IMG/VR virus record: IMGVR_UViG_3300047564_005880
Location: 1 to 55,783 of that record
Strand: one strand, 5' to 3'
Source of the DNA: a virus
Lineage: Duplodnaviria > Caudoviricetes
Length of the DNA stretch: 55,783 nucleotides
The position numbers were made by a program, and so were the translations under genes. This document shows, piece after piece, positions 1 through 37,380 of this stretch (position 1 is the first letter of the stretch; every line of letters begins with the position of its first letter). The notes under the pieces are model-generated. The model ran no database searches, was not told the origin of the DNA, and worked only from the letters and a program-made list of their open reading frames with translations.

Positions 1-3000
1 TTATTAGAAGACCAGATTTGATACCAGTTTGAATATGTTGTGGAGGTTCCACCGCTATCACCACGAATCCAAAGATTATTATTATCGGTAAATCCAAGTT
101 GAGTTACTGCTCTTGTGCTTGAAGCGGATTTTCTTCTGTATGTGAGAACACCAGCCTGAGTTCCACCATCGTTAAGTGAAACTGCGCTGTTGTTTCTCAG
201 GTGAAGTTCAATACCTAACTGAGCTCCACTAGGAGCTGGGTTTGATGTTACTGGAACTTCATCATGTAGTAATCTGTTTGATGTAGCAGCAGTTCCGTTA
301 ATCGAGATGTTGTAGGTTCCCTGAGCAATACGAGCAGGATCAAGAGTCCCCTGAGTAAACAGAGATGCATCGATAAGATCAGCTTGACTCAGAGTTCCAA
401 AAGCACCCTGAATAAATTCAGCAATAAGACCAGATCCAGTTCCCTGATCGAGGCTAACTTCACCGCTATTTGTTACAATAAATCCAGCTTCAGTTTGGTT
501 TGCAAGAGCTTGATCACTCTTTCTCTTACGTAACTTAATAAGACCATAGTTTCCATAAACAGTAGTATTAGTCGTATTAGCGTTTGCTTTTCTAACGTCA
601 ATACTAATATTTCCATATCCACGGTTGACCGTACCCTTAACTGCCGTTAAGTTTGCTGCTGAAGAAGGTGAACCTAATTCTGATGGGACGGTAACAGTAA
701 AGTTTCCAGTATATCCAGTTCCAGGATCAGTTACTTGTACAGCAGTGATGACACCATTAGTAACTGTAAAGCTTGCTCTTGCTACATCATCAGAACTTAC
801 TGAAACATTACCACCTGCAAGAGGAAGATTCTGATAGATCTGAGTTCCACTTTGAGGAGTATATCCAGTACCACCACTTGTGATAGTAATACTGTCAATA
901 TATGTACTATCAGTAATTGATGCACTGATTACGATAGCATCAGCAGTTTCTGGTTTGATCGATTGTAATGCATACTCGTAAGAAGAGTCCCCACGAAGGA
1001 ATGTGAATGCATTAGCAACACCTCTAGATGCAAGACGTTGTGGATCAATAGTTCCAGAAACGATGTTTGATGCATCGATGTTTGTAGAAGTGAGCTGAGT
1101 CCAGTTAGCAGCATCTGAAGCAGAAGTGTTAACTGCTCTCAGAATATCTACAATTCTTTCTCTCTCTACATTACCACTAGTTGTGGAAGATGCATTTGTA
1201 GTTACCGTGTACTCATTTGCATTATTGACAGAAACTACATAGAATCCATCTGGAGCAGTACCAGAAGTAAAGTTCAAATATACTAGGTTGCCATTTGATA
1301 ATCCATGCCCAGTCTCGGTAACAACAATAGTTGTGCTTGCTGTTTGAGAGTATGTGCCAGTTCCAACGTTAGAACCAGATAAGTCGCGGATAAAGTCTCC
1401 AGTGTCAAATTTGATATTGTTTGCAATATCAAGATAAACTCTACCCTCAACTGCAGCAGAGATGCTAGCGTTGTACTGAGAACCTCCAGGTGAGGTTGGA
1501 ACTGTAACTGTTGGATTGTTATAATAACCTTTACCAATATTTGTGATGGTTACAGATACAACACTTCCATTTACAACATTAGCAGTTGCAGCAGCTTGAA
1601 TTCCGTTTACAGTGTCATTTGGTGCGCTAATCGTCAGAGCAAAATTATTTGCATAGAATGCTCCAGCAACATCAATATCGTAGTTGTAAACTGCACCATC
1701 GTTGTAATCAGTAATCACACCAGTTGCTCCAGTTGAGCTGCCATTAACGATTGATGAATTGGGGAATGAGTATGTATTGTTTGGAGTAAATGTAATATAC
1801 TGTGAGTCTAAGTCATTTTCAAGAATATATGAAACTGCGATACCCTGAGTAGTAAATACCTGAGTTCCAGTTCCTTGAGAAGTGAGATCAATTGCAGTTC
1901 CATTAGCAGCATCTGTTGCATTCGCTGCAAGCTTAATTGTATTTGCATTAACTACAATCGCATAGTAAGTGGAACCATTTGTGATTCCGCCAATTGCAGC
2001 AGTTCCTTGACTGTAAATTAAACCGTCTTCGGTTGCCAAACCATGGGCAGTGATAGTAATTTCTTCTGTGCTAGTATTGACATCTGCTGGAGCAACGTTG
2101 AATACTTGTGTAGTTGTCTCGATTGCAATATCACCAGCAACAACGTCTTCAAGTTCAAGACGCTCTTGCGTTGAGTTGACAGATGTGATATTAAATGGAC
2201 GCAGAGCTGGAATCTGGTCGATGTTAATCTTACCAGTTGCAGTCAACTGAACCAGAGCAGAAGGAACAGCGTTGGTTGAATATGGTTGGTTCAGATATGG
2301 ACCAAGGTTGTTGGAGATGTAGTCTCTAACAGATGCTTGAGTTGGGAGCAGAGAATCTGACGCAAATGCTCCACCGAGATTATCGTCTGCAGAGAATCCA
2401 GTAACTGTAATATCTCCACCAGTAATCTTAATCGAAGTCAGTTCGGAAATTGCAACTGTACCAACAAAGCTAATGGCACCAGTTCTGTTGAAGATGGTAA
2501 CAAAGTTACCTACTTTAAAGTCACCAAATTCGTTAGTGCCAGAGGTATAAACCTGACCATACTCTTCTTCTCTTGCCTCAAAAGCAGATCCTCTACCAAA
2601 TCCACCGTTTTGTGGAAGAGCAGCATAGCTGTTTCCAGATCCAGAAAATTCCCAAGTGTGAGATGAAGAGTTGACAACAGATGGTCTATGAAGTCTGACT
2701 GTTTCGCCTACAAGTGGAGTGCTTGTTCCACCAGCAATATTTCCAAGAGAATATGCATAACGAGTAGAAGTTGCAGTCTCAGTAACATCAAGAGATTGGT
2801 TAGTTACAATAGTTGCAGTGATCTGAGATCCAGGAGAACCAGATACATTCTTAGTTTGAAGAATAATAAACTCAAGAGATGGGTTTGTATTCTCATAACC
2901 ATCGATCTTGATAAGATAATCTTCTACTGGAATATTAGTTAGTGCTGGACCAGTAATGACAATTTCTTGTCTTCCTGTTTCTGCTCCATTACCATCAACT

Positions 3001-6000
3001 TGGTTTGTAATAGAAACAACTTGACCGATATCGAATGAATATGCTTCAGCACGATAACCAGTAGCACGCAGAGCGTAAGTGCCAAAGTTAGATGCAGAGT
3101 TGGTTACCGATGCATAACCACCAGACTGACAGACAATACCATCTTGACAGAAGATAGCAAACACAGAAACTAACTGTGTGTAACCATCGTTCAGAATGTT
3201 GTATGCAGTACCACCAAACGAGATGATAGTGAATGCCGATGCAACCATCGACTTACCCTGTGGATCATATAAAGCAATTGTATTACCAAGGCTATCAAGT
3301 TTGAGACCTGGGCGAGGTACGTTTGGAGTTGCAACCTTAGCACCGTCAATCTCACATCCAGAACCACCTTCAAAGGAAATCAGAGAAGAGTTTTGAATGT
3401 ATGGAGATGCCTCGATGATTGGAAGATCGAGGAAAGTATTGATAAGTGCGAAGCTATAATTGTTAGCTCCAAGCTCACTGACAATTGGATCTGGATATGT
3501 AATACTAGTGATAGCAGTATTATTCAAGATAGCATTATCGAGAGCAGTCCAGAGAGTTGTAAGTGCAGAAGTAACGTTTGCACACTCTGGAGCAGATGGA
3601 TCTACAGTTACTGAGCTATTTGAAACTGGTACGATCTGAGAGAATCTTCCATCATCAAGATGTGAGTTGATTGATTTCTTAGAAAGTAATTTTGCGTATG
3701 CATAAACCTGTCTGGAGAATGCAACTTCATTTGCAATAAAGTTCTGTACGCCAGCACCAACATACTTATTAGCTGCTTCTGCAGTTGCAGAGTTGCCAGT
3801 ATAACGAAGATCATACTGCCATGCTCTCAGTACCTTGAGAATGTCATCGATGCACTGCTGATCGCCAGCAGCATAAGTTCTTGCAATTCCAGTAAGATTT
3901 CCTGGATTTCCCGTACTACCAATTGCTTGAGTGACAATAGCAGTCAGAGTTGTAATGGATGCAGCTACATCTTGGCAAGATGGATTTTGAATATCTTGCG
4001 TTACTGTAGTATCTTTGACCTGAGTGTATGCACCAAGATTATATGTAGTAAATGCAGATGAGAATGTCTGATTACGCATCGCTGAAATAGCGAGATCTCT
4101 AGCGTAATTGAAGACGATTACTGATTGATTCTCCTCACCTAAAACGTGAGCACCATCAATATAGTATTTTGCTGCATCATATACCTGATCGTTACCACCA
4201 AATGTTAGGTTATATGAGAGTGCTTTCAGGAAATCAACTGTATCATCCTTACATGATTGCTTTCCAGTTGGAATAGTAAATGACTGCTCAGCAACCATTC
4301 TTTCAACTGCCATTTCAGCAATCATGACAGCGTTAGCCAGAATCAGAGATGATGCATCAGCATAGCGATCTGACTGGGGTTGACTTCCAGGAGTTACATG
4401 TGGAAGAGGAGTAGTAAATGTAACAGTACCAGTCTCTCCATTATTCGCAGGGCTTGCAAGAGAAATTGTGAGAGTTCTGTAATCTGGAGTGTCTGCTACA
4501 GCATAGTTACCATCAGTGAGAGATCCACTAAACGTGAAGTTATAAGTCTGAAGAGCATATCCAGCATGTCCTAGAGGAACGGTTACCGTCAGGGTCTGCC
4601 CACTGATGCTGTAGGATCCAGATCTTGCATTTGCAGTGATGCTTGAATATGTTGTGCCATCGATGGGGATGGTTGTTCCTCTTGTACTTGAAGAGGTATG
4701 ATGTGATTTAATATATCCGTATGCTTCTTCGGCAATAAAGTCTTGGTTTACTCTGATTGCTTCAGCACCATCTCTGTAACGATCAGTTTGAGATACTGAT
4801 GTAAATCCATATGGAGAGTTCCTGAGAGATGCAAGAACATAGTTATTTGCCGCAACTACACTTTGATCACCAGCAATATCAAGAGCACTTCCAAATCTTG
4901 AATATGATCCTCTTACTGCGAATGCAATTGCGAATCCATCAGCTCTTTCAATTCTATGAGTTACATACTTTCTACCGTTAAGATCTTCGATGTTATCTGC
5001 AACAGAGAAAGTACCAGTTCTTGTTGCACTATCTGGAGCATTAAGAGTAAATCTAACAGTTTGAGTTCCAGAGCTATATCTACCTCTGGCAAGACCCAAT
5101 ACTGTTCCAGATGGAAGGGTTGGGAAAGTAGTTCCAGTTGTAAACGTATCACAGTGATAAACCTTAGATGGAGCTCCACCTGTAGTAAATGTAAACTTAA
5201 GACCAGCTTCACCAAGAGTTGTAAGATTGCCCCAGAATGAATTTACAAGACTAGTATCAACTCCAGTGATTGTACACTGAATTGTTGTGCCACTTTGAGT
5301 ATATGAGTATGCTGCACTGGCACCAAAGTTGATTGTGGAACTTTGGAATCCATAGAGGTTTACTTCTTGACCAACTTCGTAGTCATGATATGTTGTTGAT
5401 CCAAGAGAAATAACAACACCCTCATAGTTTTGTTGGGTTGTAAGTGAAGTATCAATTGTTGAAACTGAAAGTACTCTTTCGTTGAGATCAAATCTCTGAA
5501 ATCCCTTACCTGCTGAAGTTATATCAACAGTAATAGGATCGTCTTGTCCAGATGGGTTCTTTCTAGTAGCGTTTGCTTGGCTAGTTGCAATTCTAACCCA
5601 ATTTTCATTTTCTACATATACTGCATATGAAGATCCATCGGTAAGACCACCAATTGCACCCATCTTGCTGGCACGATAGATGATTTGATCACCAGTAACA
5701 AATTGATGACCTCTAATGTAGATATTATTAGACTCTGGCATCACTTTGCCAAATGTCAAATAATGGATGGTATTTGCACCAACAGCAGTAATATCTACAA
5801 GACCTTGCTTAGTCGTTGAGGATGCATCAAAGTTTGCATTTGTAAAATTATCATAGAGTTCAAATGTATTTGCTGTTAATACACGAACGTAGTATACAGA
5901 ATTATTGATTAATCCAGGAACACTAGTATTACCATCATTATTATAATGGACGGCAGCTCCAGTGAACAATCCGTGACTGTTAATCGTCAGGACATCAGTT

Positions 6001-7550
6001 GTATCATTAACACTAGTTGCATTTAGGAGAAGAGTTTCTCTCTCGGAATCAAACGTGTGTTGATAGATCTGGTTTGAGATTGTTTCCAGTTCTGGTCTAA
6101 GAGACTCTACATCAATCAGAGCAGCGTTGGGAGACGTTGGTGGGTTGTTTGGATCGTTTGCAACTTGTCCCAAAGTTGGAGCATAGTAAATCGTATCAAC
6201 GCTGGAGAAAAAGTCGTTAACTCCAGATGTAACGAGAACAGTTACGCTACCAGTGGAATAAGGAGATGCTACTGGTCCAGTAAATGTTACTGACTGGACA
6301 ATTGCAGTAAGTGATCCACCTTCATTTGTAAGTGCATATCCAGGAAGAAGGTTAGTATTATTTCCAGTATTATCTCTAAATGTAAGAAGTTGTACGTTCT
6401 CACCTTGGAACTTCTCACCAGGAACAGCTGGGATTTGCTTTACATCTGGTTCATAGTACAGTCTTTGCTTATCGTCAAATACGAATGCATACTTCCAAGT
6501 ATAGAGAGTTGCACTGTTTGGATCATTTGGATTTTGAAGTGCATCTCTGAAAGTTACGCCGTTAATATAAGTTTCGTTAGAAGCCTTGACCATGTGGCGG
6601 TCACGGTTTGCTGGTCTAACAACGACACGACGAAGGTTATCACCAATCAGAGAACAGTTTCTTGGGAGAGAGATTGGGTTGTCTTCTAAGTACTCACCAC
6701 CAGATACGATAATCGATACATATTCATCGTCTGCAGATGGAGTTGCTGACTGTAAACTATAAGCAATTTGAGCTGCTTTTTTAATTGTTCTTAATGGTCT
6801 TGCTGCCGAACGACCATCGTTGTCGTCATCCCCAATAGTGGCAGAAACATAGACACGACCACCAGTGTCGTTGGTAGCAACTCTATAGACGAAATCAGTT
6901 GTTGCAATACGACGAGACTGATCATCTAATGGTGGGGTATCTGCTGTTGGGAAGAATGTTTGTTGATATGTTGGACTTGTAACGTCCGTGTCCTGGTAGT
7001 TGAGGAGGTTAGGAGCACGGAGATTTAATGCTGGGTTAACAATCGTCCCGATATCCAGGTTGATGATCGTTGCAGTATCTGAAATGATCGAACGAGTGGT
7101 TCTGATCTGACCCTCAACATCAAGTTCATACTGAGGATTTGTGTTATTGATACCTACACGAACGTCACCAAGTTGATCCTTAGTTACAATTAAAGCTGAA
7201 GATTCTGCAGTTCCAGTTCCAACTGTAATACCTAATTTCTCCTCAGCATTAAGAACTAATGAGCGTCTGATTCTATATGAAAGTGTATTTCCAGCTGTAA
7301 TCGTACCACTTGCAGAGTCTGGGAATGTGAAACTATCTGCATTTACTACGGTGATAGTGTAATTTCCACTGGTAGCTCCACCAGAAGTTATATCAATCTC
7401 AAGTTCTTCAGTATCAATAAATCCGTGCCCAACTGAGGTGACCGTTACGGTAGTACCTACTCTAAAGTAAGTTGCATTTATCCAACTACCAGTGGCAACC
7501 TTACCTGAACCTTCAATTCTCTGCTGTTCAGAATTAATTCTCAGACTCAT
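1..7550 (-). CDS. Giant virion/tail fibre protein, partial (>2,500 aa, runs off left edge; absent from ORF track)
   Basis: ATG at 7550 (MSLRINSEQQRIEGSG...); frame open at every point checked down to position 3. Beta-helix cap (VYVSATIGDDDNDG..PLRTIKKA..GEYLEDNPISLP..LIGDNLRRV), HGL-type beta repeats, two Cys-containing helical repeats and a fibre-type QLGFTDNNNLWIRG..WYQIW motif at the edge. Confidence 0.85.
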   Translation of the reverse strand, partial: MSLRINSEQQRIEGSGKVATGSWINATYFRVGTTVTVTSVGHGFIDTEELEIDITSGGATSGNYTITVVNADSFTFPDSASGTITAGNTLSYRIRRSLVLNAEEKLGITVGTGTAESSALIVTKDQLGDVRVGINNTNPQYELDVEGQIRTTRSIISDTATIINLDIGTIVNPALNLRAPNLLNYQDTDVTSPTYQQTFFPTADTPPLDDQSRRIATTDFVYRVATNDTGGRVYVSATIGDDDNDGRSAARPLRTIKKAAQIAYSLQSATPSADDEYVSIIVSGGEYLEDNPISLPRNCSLIGDNLRRVVVRPANRDRHMVKASNETYINGVTFRDALQNPNDPNSATLYTWKYAFVFDDKQRLYYEPDVKQIPAVPGEKFQGENVQLLTFRDNTGNNTNLLPGYALTNEGGSLTAIVQSVTFTGPVASPYSTGSVTVLVTSGVNDFFSSVDTIYYAPTLGQVANDPNNPPTSPNAALIDVESLRPELETISNQIYQHTFDSERETLLLNATSVNDTTDVLTINSHGLFTGAAVHYNNDGNTSVPGLINNSVYYVRVLTANTFELYDNFTNANFDASSTTKQGLVDITAVGANTIHYLTFGKVMPESNNIYIRGHQFVTGDQIIYRASKMGAIGGLTDGSSYAVYVENENWVRIATSQANATRKNPSGQDDPITVDITSAGKGFQRFDLNERVLSVSTIDTSLTTQQNYEGVVISLGSTTYHDYEVGQEVNLYGFQSSTINFGASAAYSYTQSGTTIQCTITGVDTSLVNSFWGNLTTLGEAGLKFTFTTGGAPSKVYHCDTFTTGTTFPTLPSGTVLGLARGRYSSGTQTVRFTLNAPDSATRTGTFSVADNIEDLNGRKYVTHRIERADGFAIAFAVRGSYSRFGSALDIAGDQSVVAANNYVLASLRNSPYGFTSVSQTDRYRDGAEAIRVNQDFIAEEAYGYIKSHHTSSSTRGTTIPIDGTTYSSITANARSGSYSISGQTLTVTVPLGHAGYALQTYNFTFSGSLTDGNYAVADTPDYRTLTISLASPANNGETGTVTFTTPLPHVTPGSQPQSDRYADASSLILANAVMIAEMAVERMVAEQSFTIPTGKQSCKDDTVDFLKALSYNLTFGGNDQVYDAAKYYIDGAHVLGEENQSVIVFNYARDLAISAMRNQTFSSAFTTYNLGAYTQVKDTTVTQDIQNPSCQDVAASITTLTAIVTQAIGSTGNPGNLTGIARTYAAGDQQCIDDILKVLRAWQYDLRYTGNSATAEAANKYVGAGVQNFIANEVAFSRQVYAYAKLLSKKSINSHLDDGRFSQIVPVSNSSVTVDPSAPECANVTSALTTLWTALDNAILNNTAITSITYPDPIVSELGANNYSFALINTFLDLPIIEASPYIQNSSLISFEGGSGCEIDGAKVATPNVPRPGLKLDSLGNTIALYDPQGKSMVASAFTIISFGGTAYNILNDGYTQLVSVFAIFCQDGIVCQSGGYASVTNSASNFGTYALRATGYRAEAYSFDIGQVVSITNQVDGNGAETGRQEIVITGPALTNIPVEDYLIKIDGYENTNPSLEFIILQTKNVSGSPGSQITATIVTNQSLDVTETATSTRYAYSLGNIAGGTSTPLVGETVRLHRPSVVNSSSHTWEFSGSGNSYAALPQNGGFGRGSAFEAREEEYGQVYTSGTNEFGDFKVGNFVTIFNRTGAISFVGTVAISELTSIKITGGDITVTGFSADDNLGGAFASDSLLPTQASVRDYISNNLGPYLNQPYSTNAVPSALVQLTATGKINIDQIPALRPFNITSVNSTQERLELEDVVAGDIAIETTTQVFNVAPADVNTSTEEITITAHGLATEDGLIYSQGTAAIGGITNGSTYYAIVVNANTIKLAANATDAANGTAIDLTSQGTGTQVFTTQGIAVSYILENDLDSQYITFTPNNTYSFPNSSIVNGSSTGATGVITDYNDGAVYNYDIDVAGAFYANNFALTISAPNDTVNGIQAAATANVVNGSVVSVTITNIGKGYYNNPTVTVPTSPGGSQYNASISAAVEGRVYLDIANNIKFDTGDFIRDLSGSNVGTGTYSQTASTTIVVTETGHGLSNGNLVYLNFTSGTAPDGFYVVSVNNANEYTVTTNASSTTSGNVERERIVDILRAVNTSASDAANWTQLTSTNIDASNIVSGTIDPQRLASRGVANAFTFLRGDSSYEYALQSIKPETADAIVISASITDSTYIDSITITSGGTGYTPQSGTQIYQNLPLAGGNVSVSSDDVARASFTVTNGVITAVQVTDPGTGYTGNFTVTVPSELGSPSSAANLTAVKGTVNRGYGNISIDVRKANANTTNTTVYGNYGLIKLRKRKSDQALANQTEAGFIVTNSGEVSLDQGTGSGLIAEFIQGAFGTLSQADLIDASLFTQGTLDPARIAQGTYNISINGTAATSNRLLHDEVPVTSNPAPSGAQLGIELHLRNNSAVSLNDGGTQAGVLTYRRKSASSTRAVTQLGFTDNNNLWIRGDSGGTSTTYSNWYQIWSSN

Positions 7551-8121: not shown

Positions 8122-8129
8122 TATTTATA
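8122..8129 (-). promoter_or_regulatory. T4-type late promoter TATAAATA
   Basis: Exact TATAAATA on minus strand, 20 nt upstream of ATG 8101. Confidence 0.8.
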
Positions 8130-26127: not shown

Positions 26128-26135
26128 TATTTATA
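26128..26135 (-). promoter_or_regulatory. T4-type late promoter TATAAATA
   Basis: Exact match overlapping gp7 stop, 20 nt upstream of gp8 ATG. Confidence 0.8.
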
Positions 26136-29100
26136 AAGATCTAAGACGAATCTCTGGAAGAATCGATATACTTCCACTGGTTGTTCTAGCAAATGGATAT
26201 TCAACTGTGAATTGAGTCGTGGAGGTGACATTCACTTTGTAACTACCATCAAATCCAGTGCCAGATGTGTGCTTCAGATAAACGGACATTCCCGTTGTAT
26301 AATTATGTGCTCCAGAAGTATTCACGGTGCATAAAGTACCAGAAGACGTGTATGATCCAGTGACAACGTTGATATCATATCCAACTCCAAAAGAAGGACC
26401 AGTTCCAAAATTACCTCTACCATTAGTTGCAACAGTGAAGGTATTTGTATTCACATCTCTCGATCCATATAAGATTCTTTCAACTCTCCAACGTCCGCCA
26501 CTGTAAACTGGAATCAAAATTTCCCCCTCATCTGGGAATCCGATTTGTTGAGTGAGGTCCCAATACACATTTTGTGCATTTATCGTAACGGATGTTGATG
26601 TAATAGAGTTGGTTAGATATGTTACTGCTAATGCATTTGAGTTGGAAATAATTCTATTTCTCTGTGATCTTTCGATGGAAACAGGATGGGTTGGAACTAT
26701 TTTAGGAATAGAAGTATATCCATTTCCAGGATTAAGATTAATGATACCAGTTACTTCACCAGTTCCAGGATCAATTGTAGTTTGTGCAAATGCACCCTCT
26801 CCACCACCACCAGTAAATACAAGGATTGGTGGATTTTCATAATTCAAACCAGGATTTACGATAGTTACAGCAGCAACTCTTCCACCAAGAACAACTGCTG
26901 TAAATTCTGCTGGAGTTGGTCTCAAACCGACATATTCATAAGTATCAATTGTTGTAGAGCTACTGATAGATGCAAGGATTCTTTCATCTGCTTCGCTAGA
27001 AACCTTAACGATATCACCAGGATCAATAGAGTTGAATGTGTCTTCTCTTAAGATGTCATCATTAGAACCAAGGAATACATACAAGACACAGTTTGATCCT
27101 GCTCTTGGTGCTTCATCAAACTCCAGTAAAGAACCCCTTAGAGTATAAGAAACTCCTGGTTCTTGATAAATTCCATTAACGAAAATAAGCAGGTTTCCAG
27201 CAGCATCAATTGATGGATCATCAGATTCAATAGAAAATGGAGCTCCACTTTGCTTGAGAATATAAGTTTTTCTGCTATTATCAAAGAATGGTGAGATGTC
27301 ATCTAAAAGATTCAATTTGCCGAAATAGAAGCAGTAGAAGTCCATGTTTCCAAGAGGAGCTTCATTAAACGTGATCGTACTTCCAGTATAAGTATAAGAT
27401 TCTTCCGTACCTTTAACTTGTAAAGTGCTATTCAGGAACAGCAAGAAGTTATCACTTGCAGGTAAAGCATAATTAGATCCGCCAACCTGAGATGTAAACG
27501 TAGTGTTAACTCCATCAAAGGTGACATCTTCAACTTCAACTTGGAACTCAAGAGTTGGAGATCCAGCTAAAGTTGCACTAACAATATCGTTGTTAGTATA
27601 ACCACTGCCTCCATCTACGATACTGATGGAAACAACTTTACCACCAACGACCGCAATATTAGCTGTTGCCCCAGTTCCATTACCTCTCTTATTGACTAAT
27701 GGTTCTGAAGTATATACGCCATTAGTATAACCTGCTCCAGCAATCAATCCATTAGTTGTATTGAATGATTGAATTGCATCCCCAAATGTATCCAGTTCAA
27801 ATACATTACTATAACTCTTTCTATCAAAGTAAACTGCCAAAACCTCAGAATTTTCTAATGGCGATTCTGCAAATTCCAATATATCATTTGAAACTGTGAA
27901 TCCTTTTGGATTCTGAATAATGCCGTTAATCGAAACAATCAATTGACTCTTTTGTGCAGTCTTTGCAATAACAGTAGATATGTCTATGGAGTCTTTTCTT
28001 AATTTAAATTTGTTGTTGATGCCATCTACAGACAGAATGATTTGGTGAGCTGGTCCACTTCCAACCGAAGTGATATCAAGAACATTTCCAGATGGAGCAT
28101 CGAGTAGTCTGATAGTATCTGCATCCACAACATCGACATAGTATGCAGTATTTGAAACTAATCCCTGAATTGGGTCTCCAGTTCTAACGTTTGGATAGAA
28201 TCCAACATCAATATCTGGAATGGTTCCAGGATTATCAATACCTTCTGTTAGAATCTGAGATAATGTTGTAAGTGCAGATACAACGTTTGCACACCCACCA
28301 GAATCATATGTGATAGAAAGATCTACAAAAGGTCTTCTTGTTGTATATGTTCCAGTGAAAGGAAGATTATTGTTGACTGCTAGTATTGCAAGATCTCTTG
28401 CTTTATTGTATGCCGCGATGGTTTCTAATTCTTCACCACCAATATGTAAGATATTATTTACTGGAACTGTTCTAGTGATACCAGTAAGATTTCCAGGGTT
28501 TCCATTTGTTCCAATAGCTTGGATTAGAATTCCAAACAAAGTGGTCATAGAAGATACGACATTTTGGCAAGAATTCACATATCCACCACCACCAGTTCTT
28601 GTGGCATGTGCCATGCTGTCCGTAGAAACTGCCGTAGTTACGATAGAGAACAGCGTTGCAATAGTCGATTTAATAGCAGCACATCCACCCTGATCTACAG
28701 TAATCGTATAATCATAAGTTTGGGTTAATCCATGAGAACCTTGAACACTGATTGATTCATTATTAATTACATTTTGGCAGAGATCTCTTGCAATTTGCAT
28801 AATTGCAATAGTTTCCGTTTCTTCACCATTAATGTGAGAAGTGCCAACATAGTATGCTGCAGCATCATAAGTATGGTCATTTCCACCATATCCAACGTTC
28901 TTAGATACTGCATTAATTACATCAATAACGTCATCGATGCAATTTTGATTTCCAGTTGGAATTACAAAAGATGGATTTGCGATCAGATAACGTTGAACTG
29001 CTTCATTAGCAACAAAAACTTTATTTGCCTGTAGTAAATCATATGCATCACCATTTCGATCGGCAACAAATCCTATCGGATCCGTTGAAATACTATTGTC

Positions 29101-32100
29101 AAATACTTGAACCTCAGATGTATAAGAAGTAATTATTGGATAATTTTGAATTACATCCTCGCAGAGTTCTAATGCAATCTCAAATACTTTCACCGAAGCA
29201 TCTTCTTCTCCTTGAACATGTGATCCAGTTACATAGAGATTTGCTGCATCATAAACTTCGCTATTACCACCATATGCGAGGTTGTAGCTCATAGATTCGA
29301 TAAAATCTACAACATCATCAATACAGTTCTGATTGCCACCAGGAACGCCAGGGAAACCCGCTGGAACGCCCACCACGGGGTCTACGAGCATCCTTCCGAC
29401 TGCTTCCTCAGCAATAAGAGTTTTATTAGATCTCAACAGATTTCTAGCATCGCCATATCTATCAGCAACTAAGACTGTCTGACCAATATACGAGTTTACT
29501 GCTTTTACGGTAAATGCATTACCACCATATCTCAAATCATTTGCCCAAGCTGCAATAACAAGTCTAGTATCTCTTGCACAGATTGAAGGATCATAATCTG
29601 GTTTGGATCCATCAGTTAAAGCTGGGAATGTTGCTTCGATATGACCGATAGTCTCCTCTACAATATAATCAATATTTGCTACAATTAAATCTCTAGCATC
29701 TTGGAATCTATCTCCACCAGCATTATAAATTACTCTTTGATCTTGAACAAGACCATGATTTGTCAGAGTTATTTCATCAGTTGCTGGATTCACTGCGGAT
29801 GAAGAACTTCCATCAAAAGGAATAGCTCTATAGTTAATAGTATCAATCTTATGGACGATATTCGTGAGAATTTTTTGTACGTCTAACAGCTGGCGTCCAA
29901 ACATCAAGACTTCGGTTGGAACCGTTGCAGTATAGTCTGCTTTACCTAAAGCAAAATTGTCAATTCTTGAAAGTTTTGCAACGTTATTTGCTGTTGGTTT
30001 TGGAGTGAAATAAGTTGTACCATTAAATGTTCTTAATGTTGCTGGGGGAACTCCAGGTAACCACCAGTTATACAAATCATTAGTTACAAAGTCTCTATAT
30101 GGAGTTGGTTTAAAATCTTTGAATGTTGCAGTAGATACAATTTGAGATCCAAATACTTTGAATCCAGCTGGGTGTGCTGCAAATTTAATTGGATTCTTCC
30201 ACTCCTTGATATTGATAGGAGATGCGATTTCGTATGAGAATTCTTGGAATCTATTGCTATCATATAATCTTTGCTCGTTAAGATCCAAGAATCCAGTTGT
30301 TCTTTCCCACCTATTTCCAGAAATGCTGATAGGAGAAACTTCAAATACTGCGTCTGCTCTATCGAAAGCATGGATCTGACCAAATGCTGCAGACTCTGCA
30401 CCAAAAACAGGTTCACCAATTCTGAATTCGCCCTCAACAATTTCTACACTAACAACTCTTCCTTTTGGATCCCATTCTTTAATGAATCCATAGGCGGTAT
30501 ATGAAGCTGTAGATGCACCTTGGTAAATTCTTTCCCCAACTGAGAATTCACCTGGTTTCATATATGCAACAATTCTTGCGCCAAGATCAGTTGTATCCAG
30601 AACAAATGCAGATACTCCATTATTACCAATAGTAGGAGCAGATGTAAAGACAATATACGTTCCAGCATTTGCGTTAGCTAGACTGGTTGCTAATCTAATT
30701 TGGTTATTTGCCAATCCATTAGCAATAGTATCTTCAATAGCATAATAGATTACGTTTGGTAGTAATGGTTGTGGAAGTTTTCCTGAAATTTCACGTAATG
30801 AAACTTTTGTACCTGTTGGAATTTTTGCATCATACGCAAAGTTTAAAGTACTGTTGGATCTCAGTGCTACAAATGCATGGCTTACCTGAGCTTTTACTGT
30901 TGGAGCGGACAGGAATCCTTTACCTGGATTTACTACTTGTACTTCTTGAATAACTTCATTCTGAATGATAGGATTGAGTGAAAACGCAGAACCACTTCCA
31001 CCTTCTAGCAAAATAGTTGGTTTTGCAACAAAAGAAAACCCACCATCAATAACATCAAGATAATCAATAACCTGAGTTCTGATCAACTGAAGGTTATATG
31101 TAGTATTCAACTCTGGCTTTAGAGTTCTATCATGACTATAGTTAAAGGTAATGTTGTCTCCACCAATCTTTACAATTTGACCAAGATCGGAAGACTTAAG
31201 AAGTAGAGAAACACCTGTTCCCTTCGTTTGTACGATGTTAATTACAGGAGGGCTTTGGAATTGCTCACCGCCATCTTCAATAACAATATTAGTTACACCT
31301 TGATTGACAATTTGTGCATTAAGAATTGCGTTGATGCCGTTTCCACCACTAACTAAAACATCAGGTGATGAAAGGTATCCAGAACCACCGTTAGTAACAG
31401 TTACCGAATCAATACTTGCATTAATAAGAACGCTTGTTTGAGCTGGATTGCTAAATGAGAGTTCAGTTACAGTTACTGTAAAATCATCGGTGACATCTAC
31501 ACCACCAGTTATTTGTGCTCCAGAGATTGTTATTACATCTCCGAGAGCATATGGATATCCAGAAGTATCTGGAACGACTGAAATTACATCTTTAGTTACA
31601 GCATCAATTGTAACCGTAAATGTTGCTCCAGTTCCTCCAGTTGGAGCTACGCTCTTTTGAACGACTCCCGTATAGGTTCCCGCAGTAAAGTTTGCGCTAG
31701 TATTCTGAGATGTTATTGAAACCTCAGTGACACCACCATAGTAAGGATCATCAAGAATTACCTGTGGTGGTACTCTGTAATTTGAACCTGGATTATTTAC
31801 AGCAACACTTTCCAAAGATCCAGCATTAGGTCCAGTTGCAGGAATAATTGCAGCAACTTGTGCTTGAGTTCCAGAAAGACCTACAATTGATGCCTGAGAG
31901 TCTGCAGAGTAAACTTTATTCCTTTGAACGTTCACTGTGCTGAACATGATATATCCTTTATTTGCAGCTCCTGAAGTAGTATTTCTCAGTGGTTGTACTC
32001 TCAGTATGGAAGTACTTGGATTCCAAGAAATTACTTTACCCCTTGCAGTTTGAGTACCAACGATAGTTTGGGAAACTATGATTTCATCAGTAACAAACGA

Positions 32101-35100
32101 TCCTAAAACTGAGTCTAAAGTAAGATCTACAAAATCTGGCATAGTCATGACTGCAGTTGGAAGAGATGCAGCATTATAACCAGATCCTTTATTTGTAACT
32201 CCAACTGTAAGAATTGGTCCAGCAATAGTTGCAACAGCAGTAGCACCAGCACCAGATCTAAATGTATCTTTGAGTGCTGGAATTGAAGAATAATTGCGCC
32301 CAGGGTCTCCAATTGTTATGGCACCAACTCCACCTTTAGGATAAATCGAGTTTGTGATATATGAAACATCATTAGCTAAATTGTATGATGTTTCTGGCTC
32401 CAATCCAAGTTCATATACAATCGTGGTATCAGTAACCTCTGTTACAGTATTTGTTCCTACGATTGGATCATTTATTAGATTGAAGTATAAACCAGTAGTC
32501 AATCCATTAATATCAAAATAATAGAATGTGCTTGGAAGATCAAGGATTCTAATAGTTATTGACTGCTGCTCTCCAGTAATTTGATCATTTTCAACAGCAA
32601 AAATATTCTTATAGGTAAAGACCTCTGTATTATCTGGATCCAAACTGAAAGTAAGTCTCCTTCCAGAGTGGGAGGAATCGGAAACATCAAACTTATATCT
32701 GTGACCATCAATAAATTGAAGTTTTGGTTCTCTTACATAGACCTCTGCAGTTGTCACAATAGCTGCAGTAGGATTTGCAAAATTTCTCTTACACACAAAC
32801 CTTCTGTTTGTATCAATTCTAACCACGCTGTAAGTAGAATTATCATATGCAGATGGATTGATTCCAGAGATATTGACTATATCTCCAACTCTTAATTGAT
32901 GTGCTTTGTTAGATCTAAAGACGACTTCCTTTTGTACTTCAGTTAATGTGATTGAGAATCCAGATCCAGGTGAAGGTGTTAAATTATATCCTAAGTTGAG
33001 GTTAGAAGCAGAAATTGTGTCTCCAACTTCATAACCATATCCACTATTTGTAATTGTAACTGAGGTTACTGCTCCACCACTGACAACTATAGTTGCCCTT
33101 GCATTTACTCCATTACCGCTAGTTGTTAATGGAACATTAGTATAAGTTCCATTAAGATAATTAGATCCTCCCGTTATAGATGACCATCCACCTTGATATA
33201 GATTGCCATCCGTTCTTACTCTTACATATTCCCACTCAACTCCACCAACACCATCAATAACTGTTCCACTTGTATGCGTTGGGGAAGTTGCACCAGATGT
33301 TCCATTATTCTTAGCTTTGTACACATAAACATCATTATAAACAAGATCATTAACTTGATAGCTCACTCCAGTTTGCCACACTTTCATGAGTTTGGCACTT
33401 TGCAGATCGAAATAGTTAAAGTGGTATTTGTTACCAATAATCTTTACTCCGATCTCTCTTTCATATAAGTTATCATCAACTGATACGTTTACCAAATCTC
33501 CAATTTTGACATAGTGATTTTCTGTGGTAGTTAAGGTGACAACAGAAACATCGTCATCATCGGCAGCAAAGGAGGCTGTAGATACTGGTACTCCTTCAAC
33601 GGAAGATATTACTGCGCTTAATCCAGATCCACCAGTATTTTCTTCATCAAAGATCAGTCTATCGTTTACTTTATATCCAGATCCACCACCTTCAAGGAGA
33701 TACTGATCTATACCAGATGAAGAATATTTGTTTGTGGACGCAACATACAGAGAATCTGCTTGACTTCCCTTAATTGATGGATAATAATCAAAATAACCAA
33801 TACCGTCTTCTGCTAATTCTAAGAAATCGCCAGTTTCAGTTGTAATAATGGTTGTAGTATCCTCTAAAGCCAAATAGAATTCTATTCTATCGATAAGTTG
33901 CTTTCTCTTAACGATGAGATTATCAACTGCCAAATATGGAGCTTTATATCTTATTGCATCTTCGGTAAATCCTCGCTGCAAACCATTACCGTTCCAGTTT
34001 ATTTCATTTGCCTGCGAGTAAAAGTTTGGACCGATGAAGTATGGGAATTTTGGATTACCAGTTACACCATCGATGGTGCAGAAATATGCATATACACCAT
34101 TTGGATATTCTGGTGTTACGCAATATCTACCGTTATATTCATCAAGATCTCCAAGACCCTCAACATACTCATAATCTTCGATGAAGGTTCCTAATGGATC
34201 TGTAAGACCATCAACTAGAGAAGTTCTTGTGGATTTAATTCTATAGCTGGTGGTTAATTGCTTATACTCATTAAATGGAGATTTATTCTCTTTGTCTTTG
34301 TAACCATATGGACCGTAGATTGGGTTTCCATCATAAGCCCATCCAAGAATAGGAGAATGCTTAGTCGGAGTCAATTCTACAAGTGATGAATTGATGTTGT
34401 CTTCAAGTAAAAATCTCAGTCTTTTTGGACTGAACATATACCCATATTCTCCACCATAGATCAGATAGTTTGCTCCTTGGAAAGAAGCACCATTAGAAGA
34501 ATCAAACGTAACTCTTGGTATAAATGTGTTTGCAGATACTCCAAGTTCATTTGCATTAGCTGCTTCATTATAAGTTAATTCTGTAAGTTTGGTTTGGAAT
34601 TGAGCGCCAACACCAGGATATACAATAAAGATTTCTGTTTTACCTGGAGTATAACCAATACCTTTATTAGTTACAACAATATCTGTAACAATATTTCTAG
34701 TGAGATCTACATTAGCAAAAGCAGTTGCACCAACGCCATCACCAACGATAACTACATCTGGTGGTCCAAAGTACCTTTCTCCGCCAAATGTAACGATGAT
34801 ACTTTCAATTCTACCATTAAGGATTGATGGGTACGCTACAGCTCCACTACCAGAAACGAGGTTTACCTGAGGTTCATATGAATAATTCGTTCCAGGGCTT
34901 GTGATGTGAACTTCTTTGATTGATCCTCTAACAACAGCAAGACCAGTAGCTCCAGAACCACCGCCACCAGTGATTGAAATTGTTGGAACACTAGTATATC
35001 CAGAACCAGCAGAGGTTATGGTGATATTAGTTACAACACCATTTGTAATCTGCGCTGCAGCGGAAGCGGCATTTGTAGGAGATGCTCCACCACCAATAAT

Positions 35101-37380
35101 TGCAACAATAGGTTCTGAAGTATATCCACTTCCTCCATTTGTTACGTTAATTTCGATAACTCTACCGTCTACTTCAACAGCTCCAGTTGCAGAGGAACCT
35201 TCATACTCCCATCTAATATTTCCATGTACCTGTACACCACTGGTATGAGTTGGAAAAGTGGTAAATGCAGATTGACCAGATTCAAGAGCAACGTATCTAT
35301 TACCATTATATTTTACTCTTGTTCCAATAGCATAGTTTGTATCTAACTGATAATCTGGTTCAAATTCTACAATTGGTGGGTTTGTAATATCGTAGCCATC
35401 GCCACCATTAATTTTTTCAATACCAATCAATCCACCATACTTTTTGCTGGCATTTCCCTTATAAGAGAAAAATGGTACACCGTTTACACCAATACCAATT
35501 TGCCCAACAGGTGTTGGTTGCTTGGTGCTTTTTGTGATTGGTTGTAAAGGAATTCTCTTTAAATATCTTTGGTTTCCTGGGAGAATATCATTTGCACCAA
35601 AAGGACCAATCTTATGAGATGGTATTCCAGTACAAGCTACGATTGCATTATCTGTTGATCTATAGGTATTCTGGATATCTGCAGTAAAATCTTCAATTTC
35701 ATTTCTAATGCTACCAAAATCACTCGTTCCATATGAAAATTCTCTAAGAGCAATAAACTCTTTAGTTGGAGTTGATATTGGAGTCGCTGGAATAAGAATA
35801 TTAAATGTATTTGCAGATCCAACACCAACTACACTATAAGTTGCATTATAAATGTCTTCATCTGCATTTACAATAGTAACTTTGTCATCACGATTTAAAT
35901 CATGATCTTCAACCGTGGTTACAGTGGCAATAACACTCCCATTCGCATTTGGAGATCCAAGAACTATAGAAGTGCCTCTAAATGCTCTTCTTACGTTGTA
36001 GATGAAAGATTTCCAGATAGAATCAATACTATCAAAACCAGGACTGGTTGGAGTTGTAATCTTACTATTTGGCAGATAGTATTTACCAGGAGTGTTCAGT
36101 TTAATTCCTCTAGTTCCACCAAACATTTTGATGGTGATTTTTGAACCATCTAAATTGGAATATCCAAATACTTCGAATGCAGCGATAACTTCATGACCAG
36201 CTACGTGTTCTGCTGGACTTGTATTATCTCTTGCTCTTGTACATCCAATAAATTGGTTTACAGTTTTTTCTGCGTATGAGATGATTTCATCTTCAATACG
36301 AACTTTTCCATTTTGCTCTGGCCAACCGATTGTGGAATCTACGGTAATTACAGTATCGGTCAGAACGTCTCCACCAAGATCATCAGCCAAGATGGTCTTA
36401 TAAGGAGTTACAAAGGTTCCAGCAGAATTATTTGTGTCTACGTCAATTTCATAGATTACACCTTCTTCAGTGTAAATTTCTACAACACTCTTTACATAAA
36501 TTCTAGCAAATTTTACATTTTCGTCAGTTGGATCTTCCTGTTGATATAAAACTTGTCCAACAAGCTCCATGGGATTACCTTCGAGCTTTCTAGCTCTGAT
36601 AACTTCCCTAGAAACATAATATGCATCGGATGGTTTGAATATTCTATCTCGTGGATAATTGATTGACGACTCTACGCCGAATATCGTTCTTAAAATAAAT
36701 TGGAAGGATCTGCTTGTGCCCTTAGATGCATAGAAGTCCTTAATTCTCTTAATAACGACATTTTCCTCAACACCAGAGTTAAAATCTTTTGGGAATGTCG
36801 CGAGATATTGCTCTTTAAATTTTGAGAGGATGAATAATGGGAAAAGGTTATTTAAATTAATGACTTTAGCACCAGTAGCATGACTCGCTGCTTCTGTATA
36901 CTCAAAATTTAGTTCAGCAGCACTACCAATTGATGTTAATCCAGAAAATCCTCTAGCGCAGTTCTGGAATAAAGTGACTCCCTTACCATTATAGTAAATA
37001 ATTTCATCATCAATTAAAAGTAATCCCTCATTAGGAAAATCTCTAGTTCTCTGGACATCAATAGTTGTTGAAGTTTCACTTAAAGCAGAAATGAGAACGG
37101 TTTCCTGAACAAGGTTTGAATACTTGTCAATATTGTAGTAATCATCCCAGTTTTGAATGACATCAACTGGATTTCCCTTTAATTCTTGAGATTTGTAATA
37201 TGCCCTTACAAAGTCAATAAAAGTCTGATAGTCTTCTCTAACAAACGAAGGAAACTGCGAGAAAACTCTATCTGATATCTGAGACTTTGATTCTGGACTA
37301 ACTTCCGATGGAACTGGAGGTACAGTTACAGGAGTGGTTGGAGTAGTCCACTGACCAACTTTCCAGGAGGATGTAGGCAT
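26131..37380 (-). CDS. gp7: Baseplate wedge initiator gp7-like giant protein (3749 aa) with many inserted domains
   Basis: QFPSFVREDY..FYASKGTSRS N-terminus, DSNRFQEFSYEI..AHPAGFKVFG core, position between gp6 and gp8. Inserts: YHYH-like, CBM-like, GSGY repeats and three Cys-helical repeats. Confidence 0.82.
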   Translation of the reverse strand: MPTSSWKVGQWTTPTTPVTVPPVPSEVSPESKSQISDRVFSQFPSFVREDYQTFIDFVRAYYKSQELKGNPVDVIQNWDDYYNIDKYSNLVQETVLISALSETSTTIDVQRTRDFPNEGLLLIDDEIIYYNGKGVTLFQNCARGFSGLTSIGSAAELNFEYTEAASHATGAKVINLNNLFPLFILSKFKEQYLATFPKDFNSGVEENVVIKRIKDFYASKGTSRSFQFILRTIFGVESSINYPRDRIFKPSDAYYVSREVIRARKLEGNPMELVGQVLYQQEDPTDENVKFARIYVKSVVEIYTEEGVIYEIDVDTNNSAGTFVTPYKTILADDLGGDVLTDTVITVDSTIGWPEQNGKVRIEDEIISYAEKTVNQFIGCTRARDNTSPAEHVAGHEVIAAFEVFGYSNLDGSKITIKMFGGTRGIKLNTPGKYYLPNSKITTPTSPGFDSIDSIWKSFIYNVRRAFRGTSIVLGSPNANGSVIATVTTVEDHDLNRDDKVTIVNADEDIYNATYSVVGVGSANTFNILIPATPISTPTKEFIALREFSYGTSDFGSIRNEIEDFTADIQNTYRSTDNAIVACTGIPSHKIGPFGANDILPGNQRYLKRIPLQPITKSTKQPTPVGQIGIGVNGVPFFSYKGNASKKYGGLIGIEKINGGDGYDITNPPIVEFEPDYQLDTNYAIGTRVKYNGNRYVALESGQSAFTTFPTHTSGVQVHGNIRWEYEGSSATGAVEVDGRVIEINVTNGGSGYTSEPIVAIIGGGASPTNAASAAAQITNGVVTNITITSAGSGYTSVPTISITGGGGSGATGLAVVRGSIKEVHITSPGTNYSYEPQVNLVSGSGAVAYPSILNGRIESIIVTFGGERYFGPPDVVIVGDGVGATAFANVDLTRNIVTDIVVTNKGIGYTPGKTEIFIVYPGVGAQFQTKLTELTYNEAANANELGVSANTFIPRVTFDSSNGASFQGANYLIYGGEYGYMFSPKRLRFLLEDNINSSLVELTPTKHSPILGWAYDGNPIYGPYGYKDKENKSPFNEYKQLTTSYRIKSTRTSLVDGLTDPLGTFIEDYEYVEGLGDLDEYNGRYCVTPEYPNGVYAYFCTIDGVTGNPKFPYFIGPNFYSQANEINWNGNGLQRGFTEDAIRYKAPYLAVDNLIVKRKQLIDRIEFYLALEDTTTIITTETGDFLELAEDGIGYFDYYPSIKGSQADSLYVASTNKYSSSGIDQYLLEGGGSGYKVNDRLIFDEENTGGSGLSAVISSVEGVPVSTASFAADDDDVSVVTLTTTENHYVKIGDLVNVSVDDNLYEREIGVKIIGNKYHFNYFDLQSAKLMKVWQTGVSYQVNDLVYNDVYVYKAKNNGTSGATSPTHTSGTVIDGVGGVEWEYVRVRTDGNLYQGGWSSITGGSNYLNGTYTNVPLTTSGNGVNARATIVVSGGAVTSVTITNSGYGYEVGDTISASNLNLGYNLTPSPGSGFSITLTEVQKEVVFRSNKAHQLRVGDIVNISGINPSAYDNSTYSVVRIDTNRRFVCKRNFANPTAAIVTTAEVYVREPKLQFIDGHRYKFDVSDSSHSGRRLTFSLDPDNTEVFTYKNIFAVENDQITGEQQSITIRILDLPSTFYYFDINGLTTGLYFNLINDPIVGTNTVTEVTDTTIVYELGLEPETSYNLANDVSYITNSIYPKGGVGAITIGDPGRNYSSIPALKDTFRSGAGATAVATIAGPILTVGVTNKGSGYNAASLPTAVMTMPDFVDLTLDSVLGSFVTDEIIVSQTIVGTQTARGKVISWNPSTSILRVQPLRNTTSGAANKGYIMFSTVNVQRNKVYSADSQASIVGLSGTQAQVAAIIPATGPNAGSLESVAVNNPGSNYRVPPQVILDDPYYGGVTEVSITSQNTSANFTAGTYTGVVQKSVAPTGGTGATFTVTIDAVTKDVISVVPDTSGYPYALGDVITISGAQITGGVDVTDDFTVTVTELSFSNPAQTSVLINASIDSVTVTNGGSGYLSSPDVLVSGGNGINAILNAQIVNQGVTNIVIEDGGEQFQSPPVINIVQTKGTGVSLLLKSSDLGQIVKIGGDNITFNYSHDRTLKPELNTTYNLQLIRTQVIDYLDVIDGGFSFVAKPTILLEGGSGSAFSLNPIIQNEVIQEVQVVNPGKGFLSAPTVKAQVSHAFVALRSNSTLNFAYDAKIPTGTKVSLREISGKLPQPLLPNVIYYAIEDTIANGLANNQIRLATSLANANAGTYIVFTSAPTIGNNGVSAFVLDTTDLGARIVAYMKPGEFSVGERIYQGASTASYTAYGFIKEWDPKGRVVSVEIVEGEFRIGEPVFGAESAAFGQIHAFDRADAVFEVSPISISGNRWERTTGFLDLNEQRLYDSNRFQEFSYEIASPINIKEWKNPIKFAAHPAGFKVFGSQIVSTATFKDFKPTPYRDFVTNDLYNWWLPGVPPATLRTFNGTTYFTPKPTANNVAKLSRIDNFALGKADYTATVPTEVLMFGRQLLDVQKILTNIVHKIDTINYRAIPFDGSSSSAVNPATDEITLTNHGLVQDQRVIYNAGGDRFQDARDLIVANIDYIVEETIGHIEATFPALTDGSKPDYDPSICARDTRLVIAAWANDLRYGGNAFTVKAVNSYIGQTVLVADRYGDARNLLRSNKTLIAEEAVGRMLVDPVVGVPAGFPGVPGGNQNCIDDVVDFIESMSYNLAYGGNSEVYDAANLYVTGSHVQGEEDASVKVFEIALELCEDVIQNYPIITSYTSEVQVFDNSISTDPIGFVADRNGDAYDLLQANKVFVANEAVQRYLIANPSFVIPTGNQNCIDDVIDVINAVSKNVGYGGNDHTYDAAAYYVGTSHINGEETETIAIMQIARDLCQNVINNESISVQGSHGLTQTYDYTITVDQGGCAAIKSTIATLFSIVTTAVSTDSMAHATRTGGGGYVNSCQNVVSSMTTLFGILIQAIGTNGNPGNLTGITRTVPVNNILHIGGEELETIAAYNKARDLAILAVNNNLPFTGTYTTRRPFVDLSITYDSGGCANVVSALTTLSQILTEGIDNPGTIPDIDVGFYPNVRTGDPIQGLVSNTAYYVDVVDADTIRLLDAPSGNVLDITSVGSGPAHQIILSVDGINNKFKLRKDSIDISTVIAKTAQKSQLIVSINGIIQNPKGFTVSNDILEFAESPLENSEVLAVYFDRKSYSNVFELDTFGDAIQSFNTTNGLIAGAGYTNGVYTSEPLVNKRGNGTGATANIAVVGGKVVSISIVDGGSGYTNNDIVSATLAGSPTLEFQVEVEDVTFDGVNTTFTSQVGGSNYALPASDNFLLFLNSTLQVKGTEESYTYTGSTITFNEAPLGNMDFYCFYFGKLNLLDDISPFFDNSRKTYILKQSGAPFSIESDDPSIDAAGNLLIFVNGIYQEPGVSYTLRGSLLEFDEAPRAGSNCVLYVFLGSNDDILREDTFNSIDPGDIVKVSSEADERILASISSSTTIDTYEYVGLRPTPAEFTAVVLGGRVAAVTIVNPGLNYENPPILVFTGGGGEGAFAQTTIDPGTGEVTGIINLNPGNGYTSIPKIVPTHPVSIERSQRNRIISNSNALAVTYLTNSITSTSVTINAQNVYWDLTQQIGFPDEGEILIPVYSGGRWRVERILYGSRDVNTNTFTVATNGRGNFGTGPSFGVGYDINVVTGSYTSSGTLCTVNTSGAHNYTTGMSVYLKHTSGTGFDGSYKVNVTSTTQFTVEYPFARTTSGSISILPEIRLRSL

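Follow-up and report, generated by a model that had tools for sequence, protein, structure and literature searches.

The locus analysed here raises the question of whether domains taken from the light-harvesting proteins of cyanobacteria are built into the particles of cyanophages, and whether such domains still carry a pigment. In this work, we examined a stretch of 55,783 bases, the IMG/VR virus record IMGVR_UViG_3300047564_005880 (linear, completeness ~31%; called the window below), in which a preliminary description had noted a repeat similar to phycobiliproteins in a giant open reading frame (ORF) at 3..7550 on the minus strand and in a second structural gene named gp7. Our analyses suggested that the repeated module is a domain derived from a host beta-type phycobiliprotein, that it forms part of peripheral virion proteins, and that it may bear a bilin pigment. 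For this explanation as a whole we give a probability of about 0.5.

A phycobiliprotein-related module in two virion genes

The module is a helical unit of about 150 amino acids (aa). A family hidden Markov model (HMM) was obtained by iterated search from residues 1058-1213 of ORF 3..7550 over 121 proteins and was then used for a six-frame scan of the window; because it was built from the module family itself, its E-values are not independent. Its matches were confined to two ORFs, with two copies in ORF 3..7550 and three in a gp7-like ORF of 3749 aa. Independently of this model, residues 1060-1212 matched phrog_4527 in a PHROGs search (whole-protein E 1.6e-35). The features concerned are listed below, with iE standing for the E-value of the single HMM match and N-part and C-part for the N-terminal and C-terminal parts of a copy.

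3..7550, minus strand: giant fibre-like virion gene; 2516 aa, ATG start, stop-free, 3' end beyond the window; phrog_5342 tail fiber (E 0)
4674..4787, minus strand: outer split copy, N-part, first two helices (TDRYRD...), residues 922-959; HMM 2-39, iE 7.8e-7
4380..4673, minus strand: beta-rich insert in the outer copy, residues ~960-1057; predicted strands, low model confidence, conserved among orthologues
3915..4373, minus strand: inner intact copy, residues 1060-1212; HMM 2-155, iE 1.1e-55
3876..3911, minus strand: linker GNPGNLTGIART, joining the end of the inner copy to the point where the outer copy resumes; contains the 14-mer in common with gp7 (3889-3902)
3528..3881, minus strand: outer split copy, C-part, residues 1224-1341; HMM 33-153, iE 2.5e-32
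26131..37380, minus strand: gp7-like baseplate wedge gene, 3749 aa, three copies; phrog_2885 baseplate wedge subunit; located after gp25 and gp6
28234..29712, minus strand: nested module span of gp7, three copies in five HMM pieces (family HMM)
29476-29712 and 28234-28452, minus strand: gp7 copy A, N-part and C-part (family HMM)
29077-29466 and 28510-28578, minus strand: gp7 copy B, N-part and last helix (family HMM)
28624-29064, minus strand: gp7 copy C, intact (family HMM)
28468-28503, minus strand: gp7 linker (linker peptide match)

Sequence comparison linked the module to phycobiliproteins by two routes. With residues 1056-1345 as query, 118 giant proteins were retrieved, 39 of which carried a precomputed match to PF00502 (Phycobilisome protein). 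We rescanned 11 of those 39, and all 11 scored above the curated cut-off (36.7-55.6 bits vs 22.2), the best stretch lying inside or overlapping an HMM-defined module copy in every one; a six-frame PF00502 search of five related records also gave matches in all five, two of them above the cut-off. The second route was profile A2, built from 28 intact copies with <60% mutual identity, drawn from the window and IMG/VR loci. At E<=10 it matched 127 distinct PDB sequences, and the 60 of these 127 that were listed were all phycobiliproteins, mostly beta chains. The best match was 6jpr_B (E 1.2e-6), where 'kCidD' of the module fell on 'ACIRD' of phycocyanin beta. Single sequences gave less: phmmer with the 423-aa module region against PDB sequences returned chance matches only, and with the homologue P0013 alone the sole PDB match was phycoerythrin alpha, with the Cys aligned likewise. 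A word-indexed search for free-standing module-sized proteins yielded three fragments and no true phycobiliproteins.

Structure prediction pointed to the same family. For the window's intact copy, AlphaFold without templates gave a model of six helices, with a predicted local distance difference test score (pLDDT) of 85.7 and a predicted template modelling score (pTM) of 0.86. All listed Foldseek matches to this model were phycobiliprotein chains or phycobilisome entries, eight of them at E<=1e-3. In VIA-align, which is independent of Foldseek and in which a middling Z score is common for helical models, phycoerythrin beta 5aqd_M ranked top (Z 16.6; root-mean-square deviation 2.2 Å; 145 of 156 residues), with model residues 1-154 placed on chain residues 30-184. 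Allophycocyanin and the bilin domain of ApcE followed at Z ~14, photocobilins and globin sensors at ~11, and generic globins at ~11 or below. The modelled module has the globin-like helical core of phycobiliproteins and lacks their N-terminal X-Y helix pair, its alignment beginning at chain residue 30 (model) or 35 (profile); each module copy is preceded by a different domain or by a further copy. In phycobiliproteins the X-Y pair forms the alpha-beta monomer. Since these helices are missing, assembly into canonical (alpha-beta)3 rings and rods is argued against. Judged by sequence and model, the module is the globin-like core of a phycobiliprotein minus the N-terminal helix pair. We regard the predicted homology and fold as secure, and the term phycobiliprotein-like, used in the preliminary description, proved apt.

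HMM coordinates demonstrated that the copies are nested within one another. The second copy that had been reported in ORF 3..7550 (TDRYRD ... CIDD ... PECANV) is real, but it is one copy split in two, interrupted after its first two helices by the beta-rich stretch, the whole inner copy and the linker. Nesting was found by HMM coordinates throughout the family; P0013, for example, comprises five N-parts (~2-130), one intact copy and five last helices (~125-154). The insertion point varies, falling after the second helix in ORF 3..7550 and after ~78 and ~130 in gp7. When AlphaFold was given the entire nested stretch (431 aa; alignment A4 of 8 sequences), the model was unusable (pLDDT 39.5, pTM 0.25), so the nesting is read from HMM coordinates and secondary structure only. 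From these we infer a three-dimensional arrangement in which the chain would run outward through the N-terminal parts and return through the C-terminal parts.

The two genes also have a linker in common. The peptide GNPGNLTGI(A/T)RT is present in both, as had been stated, and the 14-mer CCAGTAAGATTTCC has exactly two occurrences (3889-3902 and 28481-28494), whereas none of 100 shuffles gave any match. That the module is common to structural genes was likewise confirmed, by the two genes of the window and by four PHROG families (5342, 4527, 18802, 701). The exchange between the two genes that the preliminary description had proposed is not supported in the sense of a recent transfer: their intact copies are 41% identical at the protein level, compared with 79-93% for orthologous copies in other phages. 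The 14 identical bases fall on the conserved peptide GNLTG, and the surrounding 81 nucleotides are identical at 55/81 positions. Recent gene-to-gene transfer of the module is therefore not supported by the sequences; module sharing and the common linker would fit long-term duplication and shuffling of nested blocks.

Both genes belong to a minus-strand, T4-like baseplate block of gp25, gp6, the gp7-like gene, gp8 and a gene for a 2218-aa DUF4815 protein, continuing with a 2387-aa Laminin_G_3 protein, a 177-aa protein and ORF 3..7550. The Pfam order on this strand is GPW_gp25, Gp6-like, Phage-Gp8 and DUF4815, and the gene order (gp25, gp6, gp7-like, gp8, then giant structural genes) is that of T4-like cyanomyoviruses. 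The closest isolates were the Prochlorococcus phages P-HM1 and P-HM2. In P-HM1 the order of three genes (annotated gp7, 177-aa protein, YapH) matches the window, and the counterpart of ORF 3..7550 is PHM1_097, annotated 'YapH protein' or tail fibre; the 177-aa gene is its upstream neighbour there as well. The reading frame, given previously as 1-7550, is indeed free of stop codons: the ORF listing places it at 3..7550 on the minus strand with 2516 aa, its translation contains no stop, and it runs off the window. Its nearest homologue has 3179 aa (98% identity across the queried region), from which ~660 C-terminal residues are expected to lie beyond the window. As to names, gp7 in the preliminary description denotes the 3749-aa protein after gp6 and not the 2387-aa protein (8125-15288, minus strand). 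The latter has Laminin_G_3 at residues 452-594 and no module copy; in P-HM1, the gene at the equivalent position upstream of the 177-aa gene carries the annotation gp7.

The bilin attachment residues

All five copies in the window keep both Cys and the Asp of the C-x-x-D motif, as originally observed. The motifs are CKDD, CIDD, CARD, CIDD and CIDD, and all ten named Cys are present. Compared with the C-x-R-D motif of phycobiliproteins, the Cys and the Asp are found in all five copies, while the Arg is found in one (CARD) and replaced by Asp in four. The Cys codons of ORF 3..7550 lie where they had been placed (4251-4253, 3975-3977, 3852-3854, 3582-3584). In the inner copy the first Cys is residue 1100 in CKDD, with Asp 1103, and the second is Cys 1192; in the C-part of the outer copy the first is Cys 1233 in CIDD and the second Cys 1323. 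Both proteins are Cys-poor, as claimed: of the 10 Cys in the 2516 aa of ORF 3..7550, 4 are module sites, and of the 17 in the 3749-aa gp7-like protein, 8 fall within the 493-aa module span.

Conservation was then counted in a census of 692 HMM matches in 120 module-bearing proteins (of 121), which had been retrieved with the window's own region and are hence biased to close kin. The Cys at the C-x-R-D position was present in 484/484 covered copies, with no Ala, Ser or Val in its place, and the Asp in 483/483; the residue before the Asp was Asp in 261 copies and Arg in 206. The second Cys was present in 330 of 395 copies. Among the 291 copies covering both Cys positions, 229 had both and none had the second Cys only; counted as unique copies, 205 had both and 62 the first only. 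These sequence counts indicate that, in the lineage of the window, the attachment residues are strictly constrained.

The second Cys follows a long loop (model residues 102-135) and closely precedes the last helix, and its alignment to beta-153/155 is not significant alone (score -0.7). In the A2 profile against PDB, the first-helix Asp of the module (Asp8) aligns with a beta-chain Asp that we take to be the partner of the beta-155 bilin. Asp8 and the second Cys covary strongly (both 99, Asp only 7, second Cys only 7, neither 52; p 2.5e-27), which may reflect a single event, because 54 of the 59 copies without the second Cys stem from five proteins of one divergent subfamily. A divergent subfamily with C-x-R-D, no second Cys and no first-helix Asp (P0112, P0115, P0117, P0119, P0121, P0123, P0125) occurred in long, mostly tandem arrays, one protein of 5984 aa showing as many as 34 matched stretches.

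Distribution, the CpeT lyase and genomic context

Among 50,697 phage records, 302 were matched by the module region and 376 by the divergent homologue P0119. The matched records were all named Synechococcus, Prochlorococcus, Cyanophage, marine-virus or uncultured; within this phage collection the module is restricted to cyanophages. The P0119 match in P-SSM2 lay outside the module, and a local HMM search of that region gave nothing at E<=1. At E<=0.001, an exhaustive profile search gave 1387 representative proteins. The best 150 of these were all giant proteins, of 730-7903 aa, in which as many as 34 stretches were matched.

Co-occurrence with the phycobilin lyase gene CpeT was analysed in 27 cyanomyovirus isolates, with the module defined by the A2 profile and CpeT by PF06206 (both E<=0.001). 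Seventeen isolates were the 2010 comparative set plus S-PM2, S-RSM4 and Syn9, and 10 more were picked before their module status was known. Isolate genomes were used, as the cyanomyoviruses sampled from IMG/VR by gp6 are fragments of 4-91 kilobases (kb) and unfit for this purpose. Twenty isolates had both module and CpeT, two had the module only (S-ShM2 and P-SSM7), none had CpeT only, and five had neither (P-SSM2, S-SM2, S-SSM7, S-CRM01, S-TIM5). The one-sided Fisher p of 21/80730 = 2.6e-4 does not account for relatedness. According to their taxonomy lines, the five module-less phages comprise four named genera and one Kyanoviridae member without a genus. Three other host-derived genes, used as controls, did not follow this pattern, being present in most of these five phages (CP12 in 4, plastocyanin in 4, PTOX in 3). 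The lyase association supports pigment loading as a prediction. The CpeT-like ORFs fell into a large class (S-PM2, S-RSM4 and Syn1; 183-189 aa, Pfam E 1e-35 to 1e-43) and a short divergent class comprising most others, including P-HM1 and P-HM2 (mostly 134-165 aa, two weak match pieces). Passages of two publications state that all lyases of cluster A/B cyanomyoviruses are of the T-type (PMC10665884) and that T-type lyases act on Cys-153 of the beta subunit (PMC10452541). The role of phycobilin lyase and bilin-synthesis genes in cyanophages is called a mystery or unresolved in one paper (PMC3037559) and unclear in another (PMC2984593).

Adsorption offers a second point of contact. Excerpts of one report state that P-HM1 and P-HM2 fail to adsorb without light, that adsorption of S-PM2 depends on light and is independent of host photosynthesis, that P-SSM2 and P-SSP7 do adsorb in the dark, and that host receptors or phage tail fibres are candidates for the light-sensitive part (PMC6628666). 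Module matches numbered 6 in P-HM1, 6 in P-HM2 and 12 in S-PM2, and 0 in both P-SSM2 and P-SSP7. This agreement covers five phages only and follows relatedness; we regard it as a lead, not a test.

Several further genes and regions of the window were recorded. In the gp7-like protein, residues 948-1104 hold a YHYH domain (E 2.2e-29), together with a weak match to CBM_5_12. Next to the baseplate block is an ORF of 155 aa (41503-41970, minus strand) that encodes a 4'-phosphopantetheinyl transferase (ACPS) domain (E 4.4e-9). An ORF of the Asp/Asn beta-hydroxylase family (46441-47115, minus strand; E 7.5e-19) and a 2-oxoglutarate (2OG)-Fe(II) oxygenase ORF (53727-54233, minus strand; E 1e-7) represent protein-modifying enzyme families close to giant virion protein genes. 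The content of guanine plus cytosine (G+C) peaks at 0.576 at 42-44 kb, within 42000-46000, vs ~0.38-0.41 in the structural block. Parts of 42000-46000 resemble hypothetical genes of Synechococcus phages (67-77% DNA identity); this G+C-rich stretch contained short ORFs only, with no Pfam match and empty Rfam and transfer RNA scans.

Competing explanations and known systems

The explanation we favour can be set out as follows. A beta-type phycobiliprotein of the cyanobacterial host would be the source of the domain, which would have been built into the gp7-like baseplate protein and the YapH-like fibre of a T4-like cyanomyovirus, its copies multiplying by insertion of one domain into another's loop. 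Bilin may be loaded onto the domains within the infected cell, with the first Cys used as position 84 and the second like beta-Cys153/155, the T-type lyase site; the likely helper would be the phage's own CpeT-like lyase. The pigment might then serve to stabilise the domain, or it might render the fibre light-responsive. A bilin that is still bound would be the simplest account of the strict site constraint in the window's lineage, and putative pigment binding by the module stands at about even odds. The basal role of the domain is structural, because lineages without the Cys keep it. Far more doubtful is the extended proposal that the particles carry covalent bilins on their baseplate and fibre domains, loaded with the aid of CpeT, and that these are the light sensor behind the adsorption of P-HM1, P-HM2 and S-PM2. 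For a role of the module in light-gated adsorption the chance is about one in five.

A number of observations weigh against a pigmented domain. On the window's own copies PF00502 gave no match at E<=10, and its six-frame search of the record gave 0. The window copies are mostly C-x-D-D where phycobiliproteins and 206/484 census copies have Arg. To these are added the bias of the census to close kin, the narrow origin of the Asp8 covariation and the small, related set of phages behind the adsorption agreement. A second panel of 14 isolate phages, with 41 copies covering the site, kept C-x-x-D in 31/41, the Asp only in 5/41 and neither in 5/41; the earlier statement that the module is under selection is supported for the site residues by the census proteins, and in this panel the Cys is lost in 10/41 copies. 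In P-SSM4 and P-SSM3, which encode both CpeT and a bilin reductase, all three copies each are without both Cys and mostly without the Asp (site motifs QLAR, K/RKTD, VQNN/VVRN); the domain can therefore function when the site is absent, and these phages retain CpeT although it has no Cys target there. S-ShM2, without CpeT, keeps both Cys in three intact copies and in the C-part of a split copy. Loss of the second Cys in module phages without CpeT had been predicted and was not borne out, S-ShM2 keeping it and P-SSM7 being mixed. Because P-SSM3 and P-SSM4 have CpeT without the Cys and S-ShM2 the Cys without CpeT, the link between module and CpeT is not obligatory. Bilin reductase does not track the module either, being present in 2/5 module-less phages (P-SSM2, S-SSM7) and 11/22 module-bearing ones.

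The losses in the isolate panel, the domain retained in P-SSM3 and P-SSM4, and the Asp in place of the motif Arg all speak for a pigment-free structural spacer, that is, a fold captured once from the host as a compact helical building block, with Cys and Asp kept for packing or folding. The up to 34 stretches per protein recall repeat scaffolds, and our literature search turned up no report of coloured cyanomyovirus particles. We consider this a serious candidate with somewhat less than an even chance, as retention of the Cys in 484/484 and the Asp in 483/483 copies, down to 25% identity in A2, is far tighter than packing predicts. Neither does packing agree with the absence of Ala, Ser or Val substitutes from the census; the isolate panel, too, held no Cys-to-Ala or Cys-to-Ser changes. 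Lost sites were mostly replaced as a whole motif (QLAR, VQNN, DELD, RQAN, LKDD; KKTD and RKTD retain Thr-Asp), as after the loss of a functional site, and a spacer leaves the CpeT co-occurrence (20/2/0/5) without explanation. Another reading takes the two Cys as a disulfide or metal site stabilising an extracellular protein, their likeness to the two beta bilin sites being a positional coincidence. Both Cys do occur together in all five window copies and in 229/291 census copies, and virions are found in oxidising sea water. However, 62 copies have the first Cys only and none the reverse; the first Cys lies mid-helix at C-I-R-D and the second between a long loop and the last helix, and in phycobiliproteins the two corresponding bilin sites are far apart. 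With the invariant Asp also unexplained, we judge this reading improbable. Least credible, to the point of being nearly negligible, is a convergent or chance resemblance of an unrelated helical bundle. It could appeal to the missing Pfam match on the window's own copies, to the middling Z scores common for helical models, and to the ESM Atlas, a language-model atlas, in which a look-up gave unrelated ANF_receptor clusters only (all <0.9), taken as chance. Yet three independent lines agree on phycobiliproteins (Pfam in homologues, the profile against PDB sequences and the fold search), and the Z of 16.6 for phycoerythrin beta stands above ~14 for allophycocyanin and ApcE and ~11 or below for generic globins.

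If the favoured explanation is true, the virus particle itself may carry pigment. Under the less probable extended proposal, the domains with their pigment would be the light sensor long sought for light-dependent adsorption, and this would also explain why lyase and bilin-synthesis genes are kept by phages of Prochlorococcus, hosts without phycobilisomes. A host-derived domain with an intact attachment site, placed in the outermost virion proteins and linked in its distribution to the lyase gene, is a molecular candidate for both the lyase and the light-adsorption questions, and one accessible to ordinary expression, spectroscopy and adsorption experiments. Even without pigment, a photosynthetic antenna protein would have been captured as a virion building block and multiplied in Russian-doll fashion, up to 34 matched stretches being found in one protein among the best 150 of 1387.

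In a full-text literature search, we found no paper describing phycobiliprotein-like domains in virion proteins. The nearest known proteins are the phycobiliprotein beta subunits (phycoerythrin, phycocyanin; PF00502), with which the module shares the globin-like core, a collinear profile with the Cys and Asp of C-x-R-D, and, ahead of the last helix, a second Cys placed like that of beta-153/155. It differs from them in having no N-terminal helix pair, in being nested by domain insertion within virion proteins of 2500-7900 aa, whereas the subunits are free proteins of 160-185 aa, and in the Asp that replaces the motif Arg in window copies. The bilin domain of ApcE (4xxi_A, Z 14.0; chains in 9wg7, 7sc7 and 7eyd, Z 12.4-12.6) is likewise a phycobiliprotein fold fused into a large multidomain protein. 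It is interrupted by a loop inserted between early helices, and the outer copy of ORF 3..7550 is also interrupted between early helices. ApcE, however, belongs to the cellular antenna and has a single domain of this kind, whereas in the virus particle protein whole domains are inserted repeatedly. Bilin- or heme-binding globin sensors, such as photocobilins and globin-coupled sensors, have the same broad fold (8j2y_B, Z 11.5; 4uiq_A, Z 11.1), but they show lower structural similarity than phycobiliproteins and no sequence match, and they act in cytoplasmic signalling. Their ligand-dependent sensing nevertheless provides a precedent for a possible light-sensing function of the module.

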